Of a stretch of 39,888 nt of DNA, positions 20,572-36,049 are shown piece after piece. Within the stretch, counting starts at the first letter, position 1. Each line of letters opens with the position of its first letter. Below the pieces are notes generated by a model that did no database searches, was not told where the DNA came from, and was given only the letters and a program-made list of their open reading frames with translations. A program made the translations under genes and the position numbers. Source of the DNA: a virus (Duplodnaviria; Caudoviricetes); the IMG/VR virus record IMGVR_UViG_3300008117_004550, positions 1 to 39,888 of that record, one strand, 5' to 3'.

Positions 20572-21947
20572 ATTGTAACTAATTGATATTTTTTAATAGG
20601 TTTCCAATTTGCAAATGCTCCTTCCATACCATCCACTAAAGATTGGCACATATATTCTCTACTTAAATTCCCTTCTCCTAACATCCACTTTCTACCTTTG
20701 ATTCCGGCTTCTTTTCGGGCTTCTCTACCCATGTCATACCATTCTCTAATCAAAGGTGCTACATCCAAAAAGTCAACCCTATCATCAAAGATATATGGTG
20801 TAGGAACCGAACCCGTTGTTGAACGTACTGGCCAAATTGGTCTTACCCAATCTCCCCAAACATGTGTGTTCTTTTTATAACGGTCATGCAAAGAACCAAT
20901 TTCTACATAATCTTCTGCGGTTAATAACTTACCACTACCTTTTACTCTAAATCCACATTGGTCTTGCATACCACCTGTCACATTTACAATGATTGGAGTT
21001 CCAGCCATTACCGATTCTGCGGTTGCTAATCCAAATCCTTCATTAGATGCCAAATTGATTGTAACATCTGCCATATTATAAAGGTAGTTCAATTCTTGTT
21101 CTGTGTATCTATTTGGTGCAAAGATTATATTTACTTCCGGCATCAAATGTTCTGCGACTCTAGGTAAATCTGTACCATTCTCATCTACAGGTGTAGTATG
21201 CATTAACATACAAACTCTATCCTTCTGTTCGGGTCTTAAAGTTTCTACAAACTCTTTAAATGCTAACATCGCATCTATTGGTTGCTTTCTACGAATATTT
21301 CTGTTTGACCAGTAAAGAACGAAATCATATTCTTTATCACCGAAAATACTCTTTTTAAAATCTTCAGGTACTTCTACAGGTTTGTAATCTTCCGAATTAA
21401 TACCATGTGGTACATAACTTACTTGCCAATCTTCTGGCTTCTTCCAATGTTTTTCTTTATCCCAACCCCAAACTCTACGCGTAATACCGTAGGTTTGTTT
21501 TGAAATACATCCAATCCAATCACAACTTTCGTAGTAATCTCTATTATATTTTGGGTCTGGTAAATCATCCCAAATGTGGTAGAAGAAAAGGGGTACTGAT
21601 TGGCGAATTTCATGTGCCATCTCATATAACCAAATCCAATAACGAGGGTCGGTAAAGTGTAAGATAGCATCAGGCTTTTCAATCATCAATAATTGACGAA
21701 TAACATCCGGATTACCATATCCATCAAACGGGTATATTTTTACACTTGCATCTGCTACGCCTGTTCTTTTGCGTACATCTTCATTTAAGTCCATAACCTT
21801 ACCAGCTTCAGGATGCTTAATAGCAGCTCCTAATTGTACCCAATCATATTTGTCAACTGTACCTAATACTAATTGTTTTGAAACGTTTGCGATACCACTC
21901 GCCATTCGAAGGTCATCAGATAGTAACAGAATTTTCTTTTTTGCCAT
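20568..21947 (-). CDS. GT4-like glycosyltransferase
   Basis: SGIA, VPHGI, NRNIRRK, YNMADV, NEGFGLATAES, TGGMQDQ. Confidence 0.88.
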   Translation of the reverse strand: MAKKKILLLSDDLRMASGIANVSKQLVLGTVDKYDWVQLGAAIKHPEAGKVMDLNEDVRKRTGVADASVKIYPFDGYGNPDVIRQLLMIEKPDAILHFTDPRYWIWLYEMAHEIRQSVPLFFYHIWDDLPDPKYNRDYYESCDWIGCISKQTYGITRRVWGWDKEKHWKKPEDWQVSYVPHGINSEDYKPVEVPEDFKKSIFGDKEYDFVLYWSNRNIRRKQPIDAMLAFKEFVETLRPEQKDRVCMLMHTTPVDENGTDLPRVAEHLMPEVNIIFAPNRYTEQELNYLYNMADVTINLASNEGFGLATAESVMAGTPIIVNVTGGMQDQCGFRVKGSGKLLTAEDYVEIGSLHDRYKKNTHVWGDWVRPIWPVRSTTGSVPTPYIFDDRVDFLDVAPLIREWYDMGREARKEAGIKGRKWMLGEGNLSREYMCQSLVDGMEGAFANWKPIKKYQLVTI

Positions 21948-23571: not shown

Positions 23572-24420
23572 TTATTTTATAATGTTTAATATTTGTATAA
23601 TTGTACTCATAAATACTATTTCTTTATCTACTACTAATGCATCTTTTGAAAGACCATCCGCAATAGTTAGAATTACGTTTGCAGTATTTCCTGCCGCATA
23701 TTCATCTACTTTATCGTATAACATTGAATACATTTCTGAATAATCGTTTAGAACCATCACTTTGTGGTCTACTTTCAATTCTCCCTTTGCTGATTGTAAT
23801 TGGCAAGTATTAAGTATTCTACGAATATCAGGATAATAAGAATTAATGATGTCTGCAACATTCTTAATATCATACTTAATCTTTTCCGAATCTAAAACCT
23901 TACTAACTTGTACTGCCACATCTTTTTTAGTCGGTGGAGTAATTGCGAATGATTGACAACGGCTTTGAATAGGGTCAATGATTTTCTCAATATAATTACA
24001 AGTCAAAATGAATCTACAATGTTTACTGAATGTTTCCATTAAGTTTCTCAAAATCGCTTGTGCTCCCGGTGTCATATAATCAAACTCATCTAATATGATT
24101 ACTTTGAAACCTGCAAATCCAACTGATGATGCGAAGTTCTTAACTTTTGTTCTTACTGTATCTACATTGTTTTCATCTGATGCGTTGATAATCATACTAT
24201 CACACTTAATTGTGTTTACGATTAGTTTAGCAAGTGTGGTCTTACCAGTACCTGCTTTTCCGTATAACAACAAATGTGGTATGTCGTTTGCATCTAAATA
24301 TTGCTGAATAGTTTCTTTGATGGTTTCATTACCAACATAGTCAGCAAGAGTTTGTGGGCGGTATTTTTCCACCCACAAAGTATGCTCTCTTTTACTTATA
24401 TCATTTGCGAAAAAACTCAT
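23572..24420 (-). CDS. Clamp loader AAA+ subunit (RFC small subunit/T4 gp44-like)
   Basis: LWVEKYRP, GKAGTGKTT, NASDE, ILDEFD, AQAILR, FILTCN, IQSRC. Likely ATG at 24420. Confidence 0.93.
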   Translation of the reverse strand: MSFFANDISKREHTLWVEKYRPQTLADYVGNETIKETIQQYLDANDIPHLLLYGKAGTGKTTLAKLIVNTIKCDSMIINASDENNVDTVRTKVKNFASSVGFAGFKVIILDEFDYMTPGAQAILRNLMETFSKHCRFILTCNYIEKIIDPIQSRCQSFAITPPTKKDVAVQVSKVLDSEKIKYDIKNVADIINSYYPDIRRILNTCQLQSAKGELKVDHKVMVLNDYSEMYSMLYDKVDEYAAGNTANVILTIADGLSKDALVVDKEIVFMSTIIQILNIIK

Positions 24421-24421
24421 A

Positions 24422-24862
24422 TTATTTTCCAGTTGAACCGAATCCGCCATCGCCTCTTTCGGTGTTAGATAATTCTTCTACTTCAGTAAATTCTATTTGT
24501 GGATATGGTAAGATAATAATTTGTGCAATTCTATCACCAACTTTGTAATCAGTTTCATCAATTCTTACATCATTTTTTCCATATACTTTTTTGAATGTAG
24601 CTTGTAATTCACCTCTATACCCACTATCAACTACTCCAACACAATTTGTCAAAGCCAAATCAGTTTTTCTAATTGATGAACGAGGAAATATCAATCCTAC
24701 AAATCCTTCCGGTATTTCCAATGCAATTCCCATCCCATATGTTACATCGAATGTCGTATTGGATAATATTGATGTTGCTACCAAATCCATCCCACCATCG
24801 CCAGATTTAGCGTATTGTGGTACTACTGCATTAGGATGCAGTTTCTTGATTTTTACTTTCAT
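24422..24862 (-). CDS. dut: Trimeric dUTPase
   Basis: GMDL, PRSS, GVVDSGYRGE, GDRIAQ, RGDGGFGSTG. Likely ATG at 24862. Confidence 0.95.
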   Translation of the reverse strand: MKVKIKKLHPNAVVPQYAKSGDGGMDLVATSILSNTTFDVTYGMGIALEIPEGFVGLIFPRSSIRKTDLALTNCVGVVDSGYRGELQATFKKVYGKNDVRIDETDYKVGDRIAQIIILPYPQIEFTEVEELSNTERGDGGFGSTGK

Positions 24863-25148
24863 CTTGCTCTTTTCTAATTTGTTTTGTATCTTCGGAAATA
24901 GGTCTTGCAAATATTTTAAACTCCATTCCATTCTGTTTAAATGTTAATACATCACCCTCCACTGGTTGTAATTGTAAAACTAAAGGAGATGGTTCCGTAT
25001 TTTCACCTTGCCAACCAAATACTACAGGTTCGTTATTAAAAAATTGAAAACACCACTCTGCATCTTTAATTGGTTCTTGTGCAGGAATTTCTACACTACT
25101 TTGTAATTGTGATTCCTCTACTGGGAATAATTCTAATTGTTCTGTCAT
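24831..25148 (-). CDS. Acidic hypothetical protein
   Basis: 105-aa ORF between the clamp and dut; begins MTEQLELF. Confidence 0.55.
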   Translation of the reverse strand: MTEQLELFPVEESQLQSSVEIPAQEPIKDAEWCFQFFNNEPVVFGWQGENTEPSPLVLQLQPVEGDVLTFKQNGMEFKIFARPISEDTKQIRKEQDESKNQETAS

Positions 25149-25153
25149 TTTTA

Positions 25154-25867
25154 TTAATTTGCTATTTCTACTAAATAATACTTACAAACGAAATCATCAA
25201 TTTGGAATTCAACGTGCGATAAACCATCGGTTGATACTTTCAATTTAGCATTAGTTGCTTCTTTATTTGCTGTAAGAATTTCTTTTAAATATTTTGCTGA
25301 AAAGGAAATTGGTTTTATTTCTACCAATACATTTTTTTGACAAGTTATCGTAACTCTGTTTGTGGAAATTGATGAATATCCAATTGCCATTTTCAAATCA
25401 CCACCTTCTGTGAAGATTGTGAATGTATCGATATCACTCAATGCACCCTTTGCTTTGATAAATTTATCTACCATTTGAGATGTCATATCAATTTCAATAG
25501 TAAATTCAGGCAATGTTTTCAAATCTGGCACAGGTGGAATAACACCTAAATCTGCTAACTGGTAAGATGTTTCGGTATCATCCGAATTCAACTTAAGAGT
25601 AACTGCTTTATCTCCCGATTTATCTACTTTTAATTTAATATCACTGTCTAATACACCAATCATATTTTTTAATAATGATGTTGTATAAATACCAACATTA
25701 AATGGATTAGAAGTAAATGCATTAAATTCAACCTCACCCAATAGGGTTTTATCATCCGAAATAAATCTTACGGATAATTTTGTTCCTTCCGCATTCCATG
25801 CTACGGATTCAATAAGTCCTCCTAATGAATACTTTTGAATAAATCTTAATAAATTGTTTTTGTTCAT
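25154..25867 (-). CDS. DNA sliding clamp (gp45/PCNA-like)
   Basis: 237 aa with a two-domain alpha/beta pattern (YTTSLLKNMI; FSAKYLKEIL; VSTDGL..VEF; YYLV), located between the polymerase and the clamp loader. Confidence 0.75.
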   Translation of the reverse strand: MNKNNLLRFIQKYSLGGLIESVAWNAEGTKLSVRFISDDKTLLGEVEFNAFTSNPFNVGIYTTSLLKNMIGVLDSDIKLKVDKSGDKAVTLKLNSDDTETSYQLADLGVIPPVPDLKTLPEFTIEIDMTSQMVDKFIKAKGALSDIDTFTIFTEGGDLKMAIGYSSISTNRVTITCQKNVLVEIKPISFSAKYLKEILTANKEATNAKLKVSTDGLSHVEFQIDDFVCKYYLVEIAN

Positions 25868-25893: not shown

Positions 25894-25925
25894 TAAATAT
25901 ACGGAAAATATTTCTAAATTTCAAA
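25894..25925 (-). promoter_or_regulatory. Bacteroidota-type promoter TTTG-N20-TATATTTA upstream of the clamp gene
   Basis: TTTG at 25925-25922, 20-nt spacer, TATATTTA at 25901-25894. Confidence 0.7.
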
Positions 25926-26663
25926 TTTTTCTGTAATATAATTGAATAAATTTTGAGCGTACTCCTCATTTACTCTTGGTGTAGCGTGTGTATTTTTATC
26001 TTCAAAATATGGATAATCCCCATCAAAACGATTTTCATCCGTATAATCTGTTTTTAAAAATGTTCCGTTCCAAATAAATGGTATTTTTTTAGATTTTAAA
26101 TAATAAGTTATCAATTGGTGATTTTTATACCAATTTATAAAATCTTCTTCAGCGTTGGTTGTTGACATTATATTTCCCCACTTTATTCTGCCTGATATTT
26201 CTTCATCAAAATATCCCCACGGATTTGGATGAAATGGTTCAATTCCACCAGTGTTGGTGTAGTATTCTCTTCTATTAGGATATGTGTACATTACTAAAAC
26301 CAATGATGGCTTTAAATAATCAGTCCAAGTTAAAATTGCTCTACTAATGTAATCATTACTTCTTCCGCTCATTCCTAAATTATAATCAATTCCCGATTTT
26401 ATCTTTCTTGATAAAAAATGTGGCCAAGTCTCTGTATCTTTTACATCTATACCTTCCGTATGCGCACATCCTACTGACATTAATTTAATGCCATTAAAAA
26501 TTGTATTATCACCTCTAAAACCTATTTCATTAAATCTATAATGGTTATTTCCTTTATCCGAGCCGTTTCCCAAAAATTGTTTTCCTGGTCTTTCTTTAAA
26601 TGACCATTTGTAACTTGAAATTTCAAAATCTTCTGTTGTCCAATATTTTAAACTCTGTTTCAT
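25914..26663 (-). CDS. SGNH-like protein (nucleophile position is Ala)
   Basis: YRFNEIGFRGD, VGCAHTEG, TWP, NLGMSGRSND, THA. Likely ATG at 26663. Confidence 0.6.
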   Translation of the reverse strand: MKQSLKYWTTEDFEISSYKWSFKERPGKQFLGNGSDKGNNHYRFNEIGFRGDNTIFNGIKLMSVGCAHTEGIDVKDTETWPHFLSRKIKSGIDYNLGMSGRSNDYISRAILTWTDYLKPSLVLVMYTYPNRREYYTNTGGIEPFHPNPWGYFDEEISGRIKWGNIMSTTNAEEDFINWYKNHQLITYYLKSKKIPFIWNGTFLKTDYTDENRFDGDYPYFEDKNTHATPRVNEEYAQNLFNYITEKFEI

Positions 26664-26664
26664 A

Positions 26665-29220
26665 TTAAAATGCAAAAAACTTTTTAGCTGTTTGTGTTTC
26701 TACCGATGCCTTTTCCCATTTAAGTGCTTTATAAAAATCATCAATTTTATTTTCCAATTCTGCTTTATATATTTCATCTCTATCAATATACGTTTCAATA
26801 AAATCTATAACCTCTTTTGGGTCATTATAATCTTTGAATGCCAACCCTTCCAATCCCAATGGATTTGTTTTAAGATATACCCACTTTACTTTATCACCAT
26901 CTCTGATAGGTTCGTGCTTATACGGGCAATTGAAGAATTTTAATAATCTGTTATATGCTATTCCGGCTTTAACGTGTGCAGGCGTTCCCTTTTCAAAGTC
27001 TGCTATTGATTTTCCCTTTACCCAACTTCCATCATCATATTTACTTAACTCTTTAATTGCTCCACCTTTAGCTATTTTATTTACAGGTAAATTAATCATA
27101 CTTTTTTTAAATTCTAAAAGAGAATGGTCAATTTGTTCATTTGATTTACCCATTAGAATATCTTTGAGAGTTTTAGCCATAAAGTCCTGAAATGCTTTTG
27201 GAAACGATGAACGAACCACATCCAATCCTTTTACATCTAATTTATCGCAAGGGATACCGTTTTTCAAAATCATCCATTGTGCGTATCGTTTTTTTGCTAC
27301 CCAAAATCCTGCTTTACTGATATACTCTTTTTTAATCTCAAAACGATGTTTATCTTTTGGAATGAAGAAAAACTTTTCTGCCAACAAGTCGTAAAATTTA
27401 TTAAGAAATGTTTGTGTTTCCTCTGCAATAGTATTTACTTCCTGTGCCATTCTCTTTTCATCAAATTCCTTATATTCTGGATATCTATATTTTACCAAAG
27501 GTTCTGCCATCATATAAATTGAGTCAGTATCAATATAAACATTGTAGTCCTCTTTTGTTCCTAACTCTTTCCAATATTTGATGTTTGCCATTTCAGCGGT
27601 TTTTTTAATAACAGTTTGACCCGTAATAGTAACTGCCTCTGCGTTATCAATATCATAGAATCTGAAAGCTGGTAATCCTAATACTCCATACATTGAGTTT
27701 AAAAGAATCTTTTGTACCAACTGACGTTTTGCATAAAACTCATATTTTTCCGTATCCCCTTCTTCACCATACTTTTTTTCTAATTTACGAAATTCAACAC
27801 GCTTATCAAACCAATCATTAAGAATATCTGCAATTAGACCTGGTGAGTCTTGGTTATATATTACTCCGTTTGCTGCTATTCCCAAATTAGAATCTTTAAT
27901 TAATTCGGTTAATTCTTGTCGATTGTATTCATATTCTTCACCATCTTTGCTTACCAAATGATGTTTAGTATCTTCACCTTTAATCCATGCTTCCGCGTCC
28001 CAATTTGTAATTTTACCAACTTTTGTTTCAGGTGAGATATTAAGTGTCATAATGATTGATGGATATAGAGATGTTAAGTCCAAATCATAAATCCAATCAT
28101 ACTTGCCAACAATGGGTTCTTTCACATAAGCTCCAATAAACTTCTCTTCGTTGTTATCACGAAGTGCTTGCATCCTTTCTTTTCTATCTTTTGGTTTGTT
28201 TGATGCTACTAATCCTTTCTTTTTAAGGTATGCCAAACAAGCTCCTTCTAACCATTTTGATGAAAATATATAATCTTCGTATGGTACATATCCTGCGTGG
28301 CAAACCGCTCTACATAATTCAATGAATTGAAGTTTTTCATCCAATGCTACAACCAAGTCCACATCGACAATGTTATACTCAATGAATTTTTCTAAATCAT
28401 TTTCGAAAAGGTCATCCAAACTTCCTTCATATTCAACCTTACCTCTACCTAATTCTTTGGTAGCAATGTGATTTAAAGTATAAGATGATTCCAGTGTGTA
28501 AGTATAAGTTTTATAAAGATTGATATAATCTAAAATACTAACACCACCAAATTGCCACTTATCTCTATAAGGTGAATAAAATGATTGTCCAATAGGTGAT
28601 AATCTTTTTGCATGTCCTTCACCGCAGACATTTTTAATACGATTGTAGAGGTATGGAATATCAAAAAAGTCTATGTTCCAACCTGTGAGAATAGTCGGAT
28701 TAATTTCTTCGTAATAATTAAGAAATGAATGTAAAAGATTTTTCTCGTTATTGAAAATGTGAACATTAACCTCTCTCCCATCTTTACTAAATGAGTTGGC
28801 ATTGTTTTTAATTTTATTTTGTTTATCTAATACGAAAACATCAAACATTTTTGTTGCACTATCATGTGCTGCGATTGCTGTAATTTCGTTTTGTGCCTCT
28901 TTTGTGTTTGGTAAACCTGTTATCATTTCCACCTCAATGTCAAATGTCATTGTTCTATGACCTTTTGATGGTAAATCTGATTCATAAATATCAACCAATA
29001 CTCGTGTCGTTTCAGGAACATCACTTTCAAATAAATCCTCAGCTTCATCTTTTTCCCATTTACCAATCTTGCTCAATTTATCACCATACATTGAACGATA
29101 TTGTCCGTATGGGTCTTTCTTATATGCATACTTACGATAAGGGAATGTTGTATATCCTCTTTCATCATCCCATAGATGCATTAAGTTTTTTCCTCTTTCG
29201 TAATAAATGTTTTGATACAT
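26665..29220 (-). CDS. Family B DNA polymerase with 3'-5' exonuclease (gp43-like)
   Basis: FDIE, GWNIDFFD, YNIVD, DLTSLYPS, KILLNSMYG, YIDTDS, KKRY, KGLDVVRS. Confidence 0.97.
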   Translation of the reverse strand: MYQNIYYERGKNLMHLWDDERGYTTFPYRKYAYKKDPYGQYRSMYGDKLSKIGKWEKDEAEDLFESDVPETTRVLVDIYESDLPSKGHRTMTFDIEVEMITGLPNTKEAQNEITAIAAHDSATKMFDVFVLDKQNKIKNNANSFSKDGREVNVHIFNNEKNLLHSFLNYYEEINPTILTGWNIDFFDIPYLYNRIKNVCGEGHAKRLSPIGQSFYSPYRDKWQFGGVSILDYINLYKTYTYTLESSYTLNHIATKELGRGKVEYEGSLDDLFENDLEKFIEYNIVDVDLVVALDEKLQFIELCRAVCHAGYVPYEDYIFSSKWLEGACLAYLKKKGLVASNKPKDRKERMQALRDNNEEKFIGAYVKEPIVGKYDWIYDLDLTSLYPSIIMTLNISPETKVGKITNWDAEAWIKGEDTKHHLVSKDGEEYEYNRQELTELIKDSNLGIAANGVIYNQDSPGLIADILNDWFDKRVEFRKLEKKYGEEGDTEKYEFYAKRQLVQKILLNSMYGVLGLPAFRFYDIDNAEAVTITGQTVIKKTAEMANIKYWKELGTKEDYNVYIDTDSIYMMAEPLVKYRYPEYKEFDEKRMAQEVNTIAEETQTFLNKFYDLLAEKFFFIPKDKHRFEIKKEYISKAGFWVAKKRYAQWMILKNGIPCDKLDVKGLDVVRSSFPKAFQDFMAKTLKDILMGKSNEQIDHSLLEFKKSMINLPVNKIAKGGAIKELSKYDDGSWVKGKSIADFEKGTPAHVKAGIAYNRLLKFFNCPYKHEPIRDGDKVKWVYLKTNPLGLEGLAFKDYNDPKEVIDFIETYIDRDEIYKAELENKIDDFYKALKWEKASVETQTAKKFFAF

Positions 29221-30332
29221 TAACTTATTAATTTTTCGTTTAAAACTTTAATCATTTTACTATCATTTAAAGATAGTTCTTTTGCTCTCTGAATTGCTTT
29301 ATTAGATAATTCAAATCTATAATTTTCGTTATCTAATATTTTATCTAACATATCAAACAAATCTTTTTTATATTTAAAAAATAAACCATTTGGGTCTATC
29401 TCTTTGTAACAATCTGATTCCTGAAATATCATAGGAGTTCCGTTCATCATACAATCGGTTGCTGCTACACTCCATCCATAATTTGTTTGTCTCATCTGAA
29501 TACCTACCATACATTCTTGCACTCGTTTATAGTAATCATGTTTAGCTACTTTGGTATTATCAATCCAACTAAATTCTGGCTTACCATCTAATTGTGGCAC
29601 CCATACTTTAAAATCTTGTCTGCGTTCTCTATACTCCTCCATCAATTTAATAAAAGATGGATATCCTTTATATGCAGCCGCTCGATGATTGAATACAATA
29701 ACTTTTTGTTTTTCTTTTGGTTCTTCTATAATTTTAGTATTATCTATGCCCAAATTCCAAACTACTAATATACTATTTAATTTTTGAATAAACAAATCAT
29801 TAAACCACAGTTTTGCTTCTTCTAAAACTCTATCTTTTTGTTCCTGTGTATTTAGAAAACAAGTATCCATTTGTGATACCCCTAATAGTTCTATTGGCAT
29901 CCATCTCCACTTATTTTTCCTATCTTCAGCATTGCAGGTTTTCATTTCCCACCAATGACAATATCCAATAATTTTTGTATTGAAATCATTTTTATATCTA
30001 CCAACTTGCGGCCAATCGGGCAAATGTGAATAAATAACATCGTACTCTAATGTTTCCAATAACCTATTAAAATCAGGTGGATAAGTACGCATCTTAATCA
30101 TATCACCTGAAAATGGTAGTATGTGTTGTTTTACATTAATTAGATTTAACTTCTTAACTGCCTGTGGTAATATGATATTCCAATAGAACTCACCATGTTC
30201 TTCTAATGCCTTTATGTGATTATAGATTACATCTACAAACGAATCTTTCTCAATATTTCCAGAATTGGTAATATTTGGAATAACTAAAACCTTCCTTGCT
30301 TTTTTATAATCTATTGAATCCCAAAATGTCAT
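29220..30332 (-). CDS. GT-B glycosyltransferase translationally coupled to the DNA polymerase
   Basis: IVFNHR...YKG, YGWSVAATDCMMNGTP (variant of the E-x7-E region); TAATG overlap with the polymerase start. Confidence 0.7.
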   Translation of the reverse strand: MTFWDSIDYKKARKVLVIPNITNSGNIEKDSFVDVIYNHIKALEEHGEFYWNIILPQAVKKLNLINVKQHILPFSGDMIKMRTYPPDFNRLLETLEYDVIYSHLPDWPQVGRYKNDFNTKIIGYCHWWEMKTCNAEDRKNKWRWMPIELLGVSQMDTCFLNTQEQKDRVLEEAKLWFNDLFIQKLNSILVVWNLGIDNTKIIEEPKEKQKVIVFNHRAAAYKGYPSFIKLMEEYRERRQDFKVWVPQLDGKPEFSWIDNTKVAKHDYYKRVQECMVGIQMRQTNYGWSVAATDCMMNGTPMIFQESDCYKEIDPNGLFFKYKKDLFDMLDKILDNENYRFELSNKAIQRAKELSLNDSKMIKVLNEKLIS

Positions 30333-30341
30333 ATTATCTTC

Positions 30342-31463
30342 CTACTTCTCATATCGCTTAATTGCTTTATCTTTCCACCATTTCATTGTGTATTCATTGC
30401 CTTGCTGAAATTTATCTTTTAACACTAAATCCTTTTCTTCTATTTTAGAACATAGGAACTCATTACCATTCTCATACATTTGTGCAAAGTATACACCTCT
30501 TTGAAATCCGTGGTCATATGCATCGCTTTTAATTCCCAATTCTTTATAAATAGCTTGAATGATTTTTTGTTTGATACCGCTCACAGGTCCATTTCTTTCG
30601 TACCCCATATTAGCACCATTTCTTTCTCTCTCTTGTGTAATATGAGTATTATACCAATCAGCTTTATTTTCTTTTAACCATTGATGCCAAGGGTCATAAA
30701 CTTTATCATCCGGCTTTGTTGAAATCTTACCTTTTGATTCACCCAATGTTTTGAAATGTGGAATACCATTATATTGCGAATGAATACCGTATAATGATGT
30801 TGTACCAACTCCAACTAATACGTTATCATATTTTTGTTTCCAATAATCTCTAATTTCAGGGGAAGTTGCCAATGCAGCGATTAATTTACCACCTAAAAAA
30901 TTATATCCAAAAGGTTGAGTAGATACAATGGTTGTAGCAATAGTAGTACAATTCAATTTTCCTTTGGAAAATTTGTCTTCTTTCTGCCAACCAATATAAG
31001 CATCTCTAACACCCAAAGATGTAATATCACTACCCAAACAAATTTGTCCTAATATCTTTCCGCTTGTTCTATCTTTAACATAACATTTTACATTACGACC
31101 AGGATTAGCTTGAAACTCCATAGTATGAATCAATCTGCGAATTTCAGTCCAGCGAGTAGCTTGTTTAGGGTCTTCATCTACAATTTCTACATATGGTTCT
31201 AACGATTGAATTTCAGAAATAGTTAATTCTTTATTCATAATATCACTAGGTTTCCATAAAGAATCATAGTGTTGTTGAAGAACGGGCAATTTTTTCATAT
31301 TTCCTACTAAATCACTATTCCACTCCATCCATTTTTTGTATAGAGTTTGTTCTTCTACTGACATTGTTTTAAGATAGTCCAAATTATCAATGAACTTCTT
31401 TTTCATAACTTCATAGTCAAAAACTTCAGTATTTGTTTCTTCGCCTGTATCCCAAAATTTCAT
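30342..31463 (-). CDS. DUF4338/Druantia DruA-like protein
   Basis: PGRN...VKDRTSGKILG.I.LGS...RDAYIGW, QPFGYNFLGGKLIAAL, TTSLYG..SQYNG, LGESKG. Confidence 0.75.
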   Translation of the reverse strand: MKFWDTGEETNTEVFDYEVMKKKFIDNLDYLKTMSVEEQTLYKKWMEWNSDLVGNMKKLPVLQQHYDSLWKPSDIMNKELTISEIQSLEPYVEIVDEDPKQATRWTEIRRLIHTMEFQANPGRNVKCYVKDRTSGKILGQICLGSDITSLGVRDAYIGWQKEDKFSKGKLNCTTIATTIVSTQPFGYNFLGGKLIAALATSPEIRDYWKQKYDNVLVGVGTTSLYGIHSQYNGIPHFKTLGESKGKISTKPDDKVYDPWHQWLKENKADWYNTHITQERERNGANMGYERNGPVSGIKQKIIQAIYKELGIKSDAYDHGFQRGVYFAQMYENGNEFLCSKIEEKDLVLKDKFQQGNEYTMKWWKDKAIKRYEK

Positions 31464-31467
31464 ATTT

Positions 31468-31499
31468 CTAATATACTATTTTTTTATTAAATTACCAAA
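31468..31499 (-). promoter_or_regulatory. Bacteroidota-type promoter TTTG-N20-TATATTAG upstream of DruA-like/GT/polymerase genes
   Basis: TTTG at 31499-31496, 20-nt spacer, TATATTAG at 31475-31468. Confidence 0.7.
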
Positions 31500-32295
31500 A
31501 CTTACTTGCTAATTCACTCTCCGGTGCTATCGTAGTATGGTGTTCTATATCCTTATTAAATTCTTTTGCATTCTTTGGGTAATCCCTAACTTCATGCTTT
31601 AAAGATTTTAAGATTGCTTTCTTTTCTTTTTTATCACCTGTAATCACTTGTACATATCTATGCTTTGGTGGTTCTTCTCTTCTCCAAAATTCTTTGTAAC
31701 CTTGCTTTCCGATTTCTCTACGAAGATGTTCTAAATTACCACTACCCCACATTGAGAATACTGTCCTACTATGAATCCAATCATATGGGTCTTTTGTTAG
31801 AGATATTCCGTAATTAGGCATTAAAGCAATTTCTGTGTTCATTCCCTGATATATCCAGTTAGTTGCTTGGTATATTCCACCCAAATGTTCTTGTCCGTTA
31901 TCTGCGTAGGAAATCAGTACCTTAATCGCTTTATCATTTTCCCTAAACCATTTGAATGATTGCCCGATTGCATAACTTTCTATGTTAGCACCATACCCAT
32001 CATCACAATAGAGACGGGTAAGTTCTAATACATTATCTTTTGTGAGTAATTCTGAAATTGAAAGTGCTGCTCTTGCACCTACTGGAAATCCATAAACCAA
32101 ACATCCGATAAGTTTTTCATTATCTCCTAATGCGTTTACTTCATCTGTTCTATAAAATATGCCCAGAGAATATCTACATGCAGTCCATGCGTGTGTATAG
32201 TGTTTTTTAACTATAATTTCTTTTGCAACCGATGGACTTATTTCTCTAATAGTAACTCTGGATACATCACAATATAACTTATTTTCTACTTTCAT
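31492..32295 (-). CDS. mom: Mom-family (GNAT-like) DNA base modification protein
   Basis: HY.H, LIGCLVYG.P, LELTRL, ES..I, ISYAD..Q.H.G.IYQATNWIY.G, KHRY. Confidence 0.85.
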   Translation of the reverse strand: MKVENKLYCDVSRVTIREISPSVAKEIIVKKHYTHAWTACRYSLGIFYRTDEVNALGDNEKLIGCLVYGFPVGARAALSISELLTKDNVLELTRLYCDDGYGANIESYAIGQSFKWFRENDKAIKVLISYADNGQEHLGGIYQATNWIYQGMNTEIALMPNYGISLTKDPYDWIHSRTVFSMWGSGNLEHLRREIGKQGYKEFWRREEPPKHRYVQVITGDKKEKKAILKSLKHEVRDYPKNAKEFNKDIEHHTTIAPESELASKFW

Positions 32296-32479
32296 ATGGC
32301 CATTTCAACATATGTGTCCATGTCTGGTTTGTAACTATTTTTTTAATATTTGCTGGCGAAACTTTGTGGTTTTGTGCTAATACTTTAACATTACGATGTC
32401 CAACTTTCCATAGTTCTCTAATCGTTTCAACTTGCTTTTCAGTAAGTTTGCTCATTGGATGCGCTTCGCCCTTTAACAT
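32279..32479 (-). CDS. Small HTH DNA-binding protein (resembles the C-terminal module of HNH homing endonucleases)
   Basis: GEAHPMSKLTEKQVETIR...LAQNHKVSPANIKKIV...TW. Likely ATG at 32479, just downstream of a promoter. Confidence 0.7.
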   Translation of the reverse strand: MLKGEAHPMSKLTEKQVETIRELWKVGHRNVKVLAQNHKVSPANIKKIVTNQTWTHMLKWPYESRK

Positions 32480-32483
32480 AACC

Positions 32484-32515
32484 CTAATATACGGAATTTT
32501 TTTCACTATAACAAA
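32484..32515 (-). promoter_or_regulatory. Bacteroidota-type promoter TTTG-N20-TATATTAG upstream of HTH-mom
   Basis: TTTG at 32515-32512, 20-nt spacer, TATATTAG at 32491-32484. Confidence 0.7.
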
Positions 32516-34042: not shown

Positions 34043-34206
34043 AACTCGTCTAATTTATTATTCCCCTTTAAATGTTTCGGGTCATATGGGCAATGACGAC
34101 AGCCACTGCCACAACAATACCCTCGTTCAATATGGTAGTTAGGGGTAAAAACCACCTTACCATTTTCCAAATAATATAGCGATTTGTCATCTTTATTTAA
34201 TTTCAC
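34006..34206 (-). CDS. Small Cys-rich protein (DUF5522-like)
   Basis: VFTPNYHIERGYCCGSGCRHCPY. Probable GTG start at 34206 overlapping the RNR end. Confidence 0.7.
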   Translation of the reverse strand: MKLNKDDKSLYYLENGKVVFTPNYHIERGYCCGSGCRHCPYDPKHLKGNNKLDELWEKINHQNTKS

Positions 34207-36049
34207 ACGCACCTCCTGCACAAGCTAATTCACCACTTAAATCTGTGTTATCATCTATTTCAATAACTTTACTTAAGTCAATCTCATGTAGGGTTTGCAT
34301 CAACTCTTCGTATTTTTCTTTTGTACAATCTTCGAAAGGTGCTTGAATATATGTTCCACCATCATAAGGTAATACCGATAATCCATTGTAGAATTCTTTA
34401 TTCTCCCACATCCACTCACCAACTGCTTTCCACTCATGCTCTCTAATTGAAACGGTTGCAGATACGTTATGTGTATTGTTACCACTTCTATGACCTGGCT
34501 TAATCCATTCACTATGTACTTTCTTAACTCTCTCCAATAATTGAATTGGGGATTCGGTACGGAAAATTGCATCTGCTGGTGCTTTTTGTGGAATACCAAT
34601 TACTGCAGTATCATGTGGACGGAAATATTCATCTTCTACTAATTCAGGATGATTTAACATTAGGTATTGGTAAATACTTTCATTCTTACCAACTCTTACT
34701 CTACGAATATAGTAATCATTGTGCCACGCGTGTATACCAGATGATGTTCCTAATGTTAGTGATGTTGTTCCTGCAGGTTTAACTGTCGTAGTTCTTGCTG
34801 AATGATTTACTCCAATAATATCTGCTACTCTTGCATTTTCAACTTTTACAACCTTTGATGCTTCTTTCATATTCAATTTCAATACTGCACCACTTCCGAT
34901 GCCGGTCATAGATACACCAATCAATGCATCCTTTTCAGTTGTTCTTTGCCAAATTGGTCTTAAATAATGGAAATCGGTATAGCCAGCTTGAAGTGTTCCA
35001 ATGAATGATGCTGCTTTTACTCTTGCATTCAAATCATCCTGGTCTACTACATCAGATACATTTACTTCACAAAGATTACAGAATTGGAAAGGTCTTAATG
35101 CAATCTCACAACAAGGATTAGTTCCCCAATCTTTATCGTTTGATAAGTAGATACCAGGCTCACCTGCTCCACTCGCTTCAATTCTTTTCCAAAGGTCTAA
35201 AAAGTATTCTTTTGTGATTTTGTGTCTCATTAGAACTGCAGAGTTATTTGCTCTACCTCTTTGTGGATTTTTTTCCCACCATGCACCACTCTTACAACTA
35301 ATCATTTCTTCATCGGTTGCAGAGAATAAACATATTAATGCTGCTCTACGAATACCACCTGCTAATACTGCATCTGCAATATGACAAACCATATCGTGTA
35401 CCTCAATTGCTGTTAATTTATCACCATCTTTGTGCGAATCTAAAATACCTTCCAACTTAATCAAACATTCTTTAAGTGGTTGAGGGCCAGGTGCTTTACC
35501 GCCTGATGTAACAAGTCTTGCACCCTTTGCACGAATATCTCTAAAATCGAATACTGGCTTACTACCACCAAAGAAATATGCTTTTATTAATACTGATATA
35601 GCATCTGCCCATCCTTCAATAGAATCACCAATAAGGAATCTTCTTGTTTTATCTGCATTTGGTTTTCTGATTTCAGGCAATTGGTCAACGTGATGCTTTT
35701 GTACAGAGTAACCTACACCCGTACCACCTAATAGAAGAAACATAATTTCTGCAAATACTCTGTAATCATCAACCGGTGCGAATGCACAATTGTAAATTCT
35801 ATTTGGACTTATTTCAATTGGTTTACCTGCGAATTGCATTGAACGCATTGAAGGTAAAACCTTTTTATCGTATACGAATTTATAGTTCTCTCTAATTTCT
35901 TCTTCTAATTTTGGATATTTTTTAATATGCATATCCATATTACGGGTAACCAATTCTTCCCATGTTTCTCTTCTATTTAATTCAGGTCTGTACTTTGCGT
36001 ACTTCATATAGACCGTAATGTCCGATAAAATTCTTTGTGAAATGTCCAT
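34193..36049 (-). CDS. nrdJ: Class II (adenosylcobalamin-dependent) ribonucleotide reductase, monomeric RTPR-type
   Basis: RETWEE, PSMR, YNCA, GTGVG, SGG.APGP.PL, GGIRRAA, QRGRANNS, TNPCCEI, CNL, VKPAGT, C-terminal CAGGAC. Confidence 0.92.
   Translation of the reverse strand: MDISQRILSDITVYMKYAKYRPELNRRETWEELVTRNMDMHIKKYPKLEEEIRENYKFVYDKKVLPSMRSMQFAGKPIEISPNRIYNCAFAPVDDYRVFAEIMFLLLGGTGVGYSVQKHHVDQLPEIRKPNADKTRRFLIGDSIEGWADAISVLIKAYFFGGSKPVFDFRDIRAKGARLVTSGGKAPGPQPLKECLIKLEGILDSHKDGDKLTAIEVHDMVCHIADAVLAGGIRRAALICLFSATDEEMISCKSGAWWEKNPQRGRANNSAVLMRHKITKEYFLDLWKRIEASGAGEPGIYLSNDKDWGTNPCCEIALRPFQFCNLCEVNVSDVVDQDDLNARVKAASFIGTLQAGYTDFHYLRPIWQRTTEKDALIGVSMTGIGSGAVLKLNMKEASKVVKVENARVADIIGVNHSARTTTVKPAGTTSLTLGTSSGIHAWHNDYYIRRVRVGKNESIYQYLMLNHPELVEDEYFRPHDTAVIGIPQKAPADAIFRTESPIQLLERVKKVHSEWIKPGHRSGNNTHNVSATVSIREHEWKAVGEWMWENKEFYNGLSVLPYDGGTYIQAPFEDCTKEKYEELMQTLHEIDLSKVIEIDDNTDLSGELACAGGACEIK

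Follow-up and report, generated by a model that had tools for sequence, protein, structure and literature searches.

Mom, a DruA-like protein, and a glycosyltransferase with terminal Phe-Trp motifs beside the DNA polymerase gene of T4-like phages: a candidate DNA hypermodification locus

Here, we describe a gene block in a 39,888-nucleotide (nt) stretch of DNA from a virus of the class Caudoviricetes (IMG/VR record IMGVR_UViG_3300008117_004550; the whole stretch is hereafter called the window). The window is a 30% GC piece of the large genome of an uncultured freshwater phage, with nearly all of its genes on the minus strand; its complete relatives measure 195–245 kb, possess a T4-like portal, sheath, and tail tube, and carry 23–25 tRNAs. 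The block encodes, in order, a small helix-turn-helix (HTH) protein, a Mom-family protein, a DruA-like protein, a GT-B glycosyltransferase (GT), and a family B DNA polymerase (PolB), and it is followed by a variable open reading frame (ORF), the sliding clamp, a dUTPase, and the clamp loader. The conserved unit is the pair formed by the DruA-like GNAT protein and the GT, from which Mom is separable; all three enzymes carry a terminal Phe-Trp tag. Phage DNA hypermodification is of a known kind; in a full-text literature search, we found no paper on a phage DruA (DUF4338)–GT-B pair, on clamp-tagged modification enzymes, or on a clamp-bound DNA GT, though an earlier family survey may bear on them.

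The gene block and its enzymes

The five ORFs lie on the minus strand (as do the promoter-like sites, the tags, and the clamp gene described below), and the ORF list bears out the coordinates and spacings given by a first-pass annotation made from the sequence alone. The HTH ORF (32279–32506) overlaps the Mom gene by 17 nt, Mom and the DruA-like gene are 28 nt apart, and the DruA-like and GT genes are separated by 9 nt in the window as assembled. GT and PolB are coupled, as had been noted, through a TAATG overlap at 29220. The family labels held for Mom, DruA, and PolB, and the GT-B label drew weak sequence matches (PF00534 and PF13439, E 1e-4, below the cut-off). PolB (26665–29220) is of the T4 type (PF00136 and PF03104; phrog_262, E 9e-184) and ends in KKFFAF-stop.

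The Mom-family GNAT protein (31492–32295; 267 amino acids [aa]; C-terminus KFW-stop) matches PF25680 with 142 bits against a cut-off of 27.1 (E 2e-41), and its alignment to Mu Mom (PDB 8bv8) shows six of eight key residues to be kept, namely H58, Y59, R111, S124, D149, and Y159. Mu Mom transfers glycine from Gly-tRNA to adenine N6, according to PMC13219725. By analogy with that enzyme, with which it has the GNAT fold family and these six core residues in common, window Mom likely performs a post-replicative adenine N6 modification from a charged tRNA; it is unlike Mu Mom in its C-terminal Phe-Trp tail, in its place in the replication operon of a lytic T4-like phage, and in the second paralogue that is often present. 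This paralogue (approximately 45% identical, with no Phe-Trp tail) precedes Mom in L005, L009, L013, and many other loci, the window having one Mom only, and a third Mom is found elsewhere in genome G004; jumbo phages with several Mom enzymes are described in PMC7824862. Mom homologues occur in 281 phage records.

The DruA-like protein (30342–31463; N-terminus MKFWD) is matched by PF14236 with 70.9 bits against a cut-off of 27 (E 1e-19) and by PADLOC DruA1 (PDLC00002; E 7e-22). Its domain, DUF4338, is termed a GNAT domain in PMC10853773, and GNATs fill the top rows of a fold search with its model, where AAC(6′)-Ib (Z 8.3) and Mom (Z 7.7; root-mean-square deviation [rmsd] 3.9; 161 aligned residues) are tied; Foldseek with the same model (predicted local distance difference test [pLDDT] 61) returned E-values above 0.001. 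The family match above the cut-off is what the phage protein has in common with the DruA of Druantia type I (PF14236; PADLOC PDLC00002), from which it differs by its replication operon, its GT partner, and its N-terminal Phe-Trp tag. Neither DruB–E genes nor a large DruE helicase were found beside window DruA, which is flanked by replisome genes, Mom, and GT. An unexplained adenine signal in single-molecule real-time (SMRT) sequencing is reported for Druantia type I, a system with DruA but no methylase domain, in bioRxiv 2024.04.14.589459. A second, short DruA-family gene in some relatives (197–242 aa; L024:6441–7169 and L058:4913–5536) has more Mom-like motifs than the large DruA.

DruA matches 31 of 50,697 phage records. 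The cultured phages S-SM2 and S-SCSM2R carry it with gp44 on one side and gp62 on the other, and these two, together with HTVC008M and Mosig, are DruA-only phages: neither GT nor Mom was found in any of the four when searched, the GT search having been run without a positive control.

The DruA-like protein is 373 aa long in the window as assembled and 408 aa long in contig L001. Compared with L001, the window lacks 97 nt at a junction (30346–30349) that clips the DruA C-terminus, and the rest is 99.96–100% identical. The L001 form of this stretch is spanned by single contigs in three of four sequencing runs, and the fourth run extends 10 nt beyond; no window-type joint was found in the contigs of these four runs from four studies, two of which (X1 and X2) may be the window's source samples. 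The 97-nt gap is probably an assembly error. The 408-aa form keeps a C-terminal Arg present in both phage lineages and stops 1 nt before GT, which is the true DruA–GT gap. A natural truncation to 373 aa was considered and rejected, this form being absent from the four runs (though contigs drop rare variants). A second gap relative to L001 (23751–23752; 99 nt, in-frame) shortens a clamp-loader subunit; the L001 form is spanned in four of four runs, and this gap, too, is probably an assembly error. Seventeen sequencing runs contain at least half of the block's sampled words, and RNA runs contain 5–6% of them.

The GT (29220–30332; 370 aa; N-terminus MTFWD) has no solved-structure relative by sequence under an E of 0.02; its model (pLDDT 84) and structure searches give it a GT-B, GT4-like fold. 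The family is small and mostly viral, with 264 representatives at E ≤ 0.001 among 1.84 billion; viral clusters rank first in Atlas, six matches come from bacterial genome bins, and none was found among 50,697 phage records. Several GT clades, 29–56% identical, replace one another beside one orthologous DruA. In distant GT forms of 450 aa there is a basic tail, by eye a possible winged helix, for which searches gave weak matches that did not confirm it (Atlas 0.77–0.79; Pfam E above 0.2).

In T4, as in the block, a swappable GT gene lies near the polymerase gene. The T-even DNA GTs (e.g., T4 AGT, 1y6f; HY126 GT, 9iqz; the arabinosylation of RB69 and DLP3, PMC13326640) and the TET/TAGT pathways have the GT-B fold in common with the block GT, and the likeness extends to the swappable gene and, in a few distant loci, to a TAGT gene after GT. 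In the fold list of the GT model, HY126 scores Z 20.4 (rmsd 4.0; 327 aligned) and T4 AGT Z 19.3 (rmsd 4.5; 316 aligned); the block GT is unlike these enzymes in giving no sequence match to them. As first stated, it lies more than 7 kb from the main glycan locus, the nearest GT of which ends at 21947, 7.3 kb away. That locus (626–21947) is large and includes several GTs, an epimerase, a HAD/nucleotidyltransferase, and a kinase–aldolase fusion; it could act as a supplier of nucleoside diphosphate sugars.

Phe-Trp tags, the sliding clamp, and promoter-like sites

Mom ends in Phe-Trp-stop (31492–31500), and DruA and GT start with a tag of the form MxFW[DE] (Phe-Trp at 31452–31457 and 30321–30326, respectively). 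F3 and W4 of DruA are invariant in 20 of 20 aligned relatives, and the Phe and Trp of the GT tag in 39 of 39, while the flanking residues vary. Terminal Phe-Trp is expected by chance about once per genome; among the 293 proteins of G002 it is seen in Mom, DruA, and GT only, and among the 205 of G001 in the same three plus one doubtful antisense ORF. A GT clade with 29% identity retains the tag. In a distant lineage, the GT and Mom tags read LxxF[FLY], resembling the tail of that lineage's own polymerase, LESFF.

The candidate partner is the sliding clamp (25154–25867), recognized by a weak PCNA_C match, by its position among clamp-loader genes, and as the predicted docking partner. When the clamp trimer was modelled together with residues 1–195 of GT, the complex scored 0.72, whereas the best of three controls scored 0.00; contact agreement between runs was at least 94%, and the partner pLDDT at least 74. 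In this model, F3 and W4 of GT touch I36, L43, L216, Y231, and V233 of the clamp, most of which are invariant or nearly so. The tagged enzymes are predicted to dock on the phage sliding clamp, as modelled for GT. The tail of T4/RB69 gp43 and the PCNA PIP box are sliding-clamp client peptides; the block tags have in common with such clients a short di-aromatic tag at a free end, placed by the model beside the interdomain connector in the case of GT, and are unlike them in being Phe-Trp, in occurring at either terminus, and in sitting on modification enzymes. The clamp-loader small subunit (window 23572–24450; also G001 and G002) starts with MSFF, a further di-aromatic end tag.

Two promoter-like sites had been described as dedicated to the block. 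Both are present, TTTG-N18-GTATATTAG ahead of HTH (32484–32515) and TTTGG-N18-GTATATTAG between Mom and DruA–GT–PolB (31468–31499), the latter motif being seen ahead of DruA in 17 of 53 distinct windows; they are not dedicated, however, but of a genome-wide type, TTGG-N18-GTATATTTG. In the complete relative G001, 12 of 35 coding-strand matches to GTATATTW are intergenic, compared with 5% of the genome. The exact TTTG...CGTATATT pattern gave no matches, and a sigma-70 reading was rejected, the scan showing no excess (57 found vs. 65.6 expected). Because the −7 box of both sites matches the flavobacterial sigma-A consensus TAnnTTTG, as given in PMC9723704, we infer a Bacteroidota host.

In the window's subclade, the Mom tag overlaps the −33 box of the second site, and its codons may do double duty in the window as protein tag and promoter box. 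One might suspect that the tag is a mere −33 box; this was rejected, as Phe-Trp-stop persists in relatives that use TTC codons (4 of 50 windows) and in those lacking a box at this spacing (e.g., L013, L028, L048, L073, and L172).

The small HTH protein (32279–32479) more likely starts at ATG 32479 (66 aa), directly behind the first promoter-like site, than at GTG 32506 (75 aa). It shows weak PHROG matches to HTH/endonuclease C-termini, and its gene commonly precedes Mom in relatives.

Linkage across relatives and neighbouring genes

Three sets of 80 loci were compared: DruA-seeded, close GT-seeded, and distant (Kyanoviridae-like by gene order). Forty-seven of the DruA-seeded loci have GT and 33 do not, many of the latter being clipped short; in eight, Mom–DruA–PolB is unbroken with no GT. 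In the close GT-seeded set, 30 loci have DruA immediately upstream of GT and 34 have it at another place in the locus; it was not seen in the other 16, which have short flanks. Mom is present in 50 loci of this set. The distant loci, in which GT is 32–39% and DruA 26–39% identical to the window's, have DruA directly upstream of GT in 71 cases and within the locus in 76, mostly between two clamp-loader genes; Mom occurs in 12 of them, is absent with adequate flanks in 17, and could be hidden by short flanks in 51. Because the loci are related, and a single seed served to rank the 80 distant ones, the counts are not independent. After clustering of the GTs at 70% identity, 8 of 10 clusters have DruA in the locus (contigs fetched twice were pooled). 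DruA is, in short, often found without GT, and GT rarely without DruA. The first-pass proposal of a replication-linked DNA-modification locus is supported, and the locus is conserved in relatives.

A DruA-domain gene is also present in three of the six GT loci from bacterial bins, once directly upstream. A Rhodospirillaceae bin (L270:3760–5708) has the DruA–GT pair among cellular-looking genes, and in an Acidiferrobacteraceae bin (L267:4980–8362) GT faces a 621-aa DruA-domain protein.

A highly variable gene of 390–680 aa is often found directly before GT (L020, L042, L065, L066, L073, L044, L056, and L007); several of these genes encode GmrSD_N plus HNH, one a weak GIY-YIG, and one a weak ParB match. 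Such nuclease-like genes may cut DNA bearing another sugar, or may spread GT alleles. The gene after GT matches TAGT (PF20691) in L221:5508–6329, with two clustered homologues in L210 and L227, which suggests a second sugar.

An optional ORF between PolB and the clamp (25914–26660; 248 aa) has no family match, and its end overlaps the clamp's promoter-like site. Nucleotide-metabolism genes are interchangeable among the window (24422–24931 and 34193–36049) and G001–G003: a dUTPase may be replaced by a MazG-looking 99-aa gene, a one-subunit by a class Ia reductase, and ThyX by ThyA. Genome G001 (L082, L084, L090, and L091) also encodes an outer-membrane beta-barrel protein, GroEL, a carbamoyltransferase, two SET-domain proteins, an intein-bearing 755-aa protein, DUF1599, and 23 tRNAs, including two tRNA-Gly.

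A proposed mechanism and its alternatives

The phage DNA glycosylation routes set out in PMC13326640 start from a hydroxylated pyrimidine, that is, 5-hydroxymethylcytosine, 5-hydroxymethyluracil, or 5-hydroxycytosine. G001 is complete (CheckV 100%), carries a GT 84% identical to the window's, and possesses ThyX. It was examined by a Pfam scan of 133 of its 217 called ORFs (95–1100 aa, no window homologue) and by whole-genome searches, and in the latter none of PF00303, PF12851, and PF00145 was found; in contrast to the T-even and TET pathways, no ThyA-type hydroxy(methyl)cytosine synthase, TET/JBP, or C5 methylase was detected. Among five relatives (three of them at least 90% complete), PF12851 and PF00145 were found in none, and PF00303 in two (G002 and G003), as a canonical ThyA with the PFNIASY motif. 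Because no known source of a hydroxyl base was found in the complete relative, the GT, if it acts on DNA, likely uses a new acceptor, for which DruA is the best candidate maker; the acceptor would be a bulkier N6 adduct.

Our preferred reading, to which we give a probability of about 0.5, is that two clamp-riding modules, Mom alone and DruA followed by GT, act on newly copied DNA, with the Phe-Trp tags as the means of riding. In the first module, Mom would, like Mu Mom, take an amino acid from a charged tRNA and attach it to adenine N6, judging by family and residues. In the second, the DruA-like GNAT would acylate a base, most plausibly adenine, to create an acceptor to which GT would attach a sugar; this last step would be optional, as relatives exchange its gene. 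Both modules would serve to protect the DNA against host restriction. In favour of this reading are the DruA–GT linkage, the asymmetry between the two genes, the missing source of a hydroxyl base, the confined tags, the clamp–GT model, the nuclease-like and TAGT neighbours, and the adenine signal of Druantia type I. Acylation followed by glycosylation, as suggested at first pass, is still the likeliest chemistry. The accompanying idea that the block feeds into the polymerase finds no support: no modified-nucleotide synthase was found, and clamp docking plus shared transcription seem to be what ties the block to replication. A bolder version is tentative, about one chance in three by our estimate: DUF4338/DruA would be a second DNA base acyltransferase family whose acyl-adenine is glycosylated by a clamp-tethered GT-B, which would yield a glycosylated purine without any hydroxylated pyrimidine; sugars would be swapped between relatives, GmrSD-like nucleases would travel with each GT, and the DruA family would explain the Druantia type I mark.

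Several observations weigh against the two-module reading. The distant DruA proteins have no aromatic tag. The clamp–GT score passes a mark that 116 of 157 solved pairs and 2 of 215 mismatched ones reach, but the job is unlike that calibration, and the pass may come partly from likeness to solved clamp–peptide complexes. The fold of GT is generic, with BshA (Z 25.8) and PimB′ (Z 25.6) placed above the phage DNA GTs, and the absence of a family match in G001 is compatible with a handle-making enzyme that goes unrecognized. Window Mom has Gly134 for R151 and Ser22 for W48, both important in Mu Mom (R151 is essential and W48 a dimer residue, according to PMC13219725), which makes the same chemistry less likely. 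The DruA model is weak, a profile comparison of DruA with Mom gave a probability of 1.7%, so that a sequence-profile proof of DruA being Mom-like failed, and the large DruA lacks, by eye, R111, S124, and D149 of Mom; because of the missing profile link and residues, the chemistry of DruA probably differs from that of Mom. Adjacency is not fixed either: in 24 of 80 close loci, DruA is separated from GT and found after PolB and the clamp, GT precedes DruA in others, and DruA was not seen on the GT contig L234 (11% complete).

The strongest alternative, which we consider unlikely though a serious contender, is that the three are independent clamp-riding DNA modifiers, clustered for co-expression with the replisome, with GT acting on a base nitrogen or on the acceptor of an unrecognized enzyme. 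Each protein does have its own tag, gene order and spacing vary, and diverse GT clades swap next to a single DruA orthologue. Such independence sits poorly with a GT that is almost never without DruA, DruA itself being patchy in cultured phages, with the adjacency of the pair in two distant lineages and a bacterial bin, and with the joint position of the two behind the clamp in G010.

It is improbable that the substrate of DruA, GT, or both is not DNA but a small molecule or a protein at the fork, such as a replisome component or a host factor. The solved structures nearest to GT in fold belong to enzymes that work on small molecules and lipids, GNATs mostly target proteins or metabolites, a DndF-fused DUF4338 is treated as a possible protein-targeting effector in PMC10853773, and the window has its large glycan locus; against these stand the clamp tag and model, the nuclease and TAGT neighbours, the basic tail of the 450-aa GT forms (a possible winged helix, seen by eye), and the Druantia adenine signal (bioRxiv 2024.04.14.589459).

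Slightly less probable still is the single pathway of all three enzymes proposed at first pass, in which, for example, Mom acylates adenine and GT glycosylates the product. Every complete or near-complete genome tested in the window's lineage (G001–G003 and G010) has Mom, it accompanies most close GT loci, and the tag is common to all three proteins. In the complete genome G010, however, DruA and GT lie together behind the clamp with the Moms approximately 19 kb away, Mom was not found in the partial genomes G013 and G014, it is seen in only 12 of the 80 distant DruA–GT loci (51 with short flanks) and missing from 17 with adequate flanks, a promoter-like site separates it from DruA, and its homologues are frequent in phage records where GT has none. 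Chance clustering of accessory genes with no common function, in a module that takes up many swappable genes, is very improbable given tags confined to these proteins and the deep DruA–GT linkage.

If the two-module reading is true, the route from GNAT to GT would be a nucleoside chemistry not described before, in T4-like phages that are abundant in fresh and marine waters. It would give DUF4338 a function and suggest which enzyme might set the self-mark of Druantia type I, and the cultured DruA-only phages (S-SM2, S-SCSM2R, HTVC008M, and Mosig) make its first step testable. Modification enzymes tethered to the clamp would also reveal a way in which these phages guard their DNA during synthesis.

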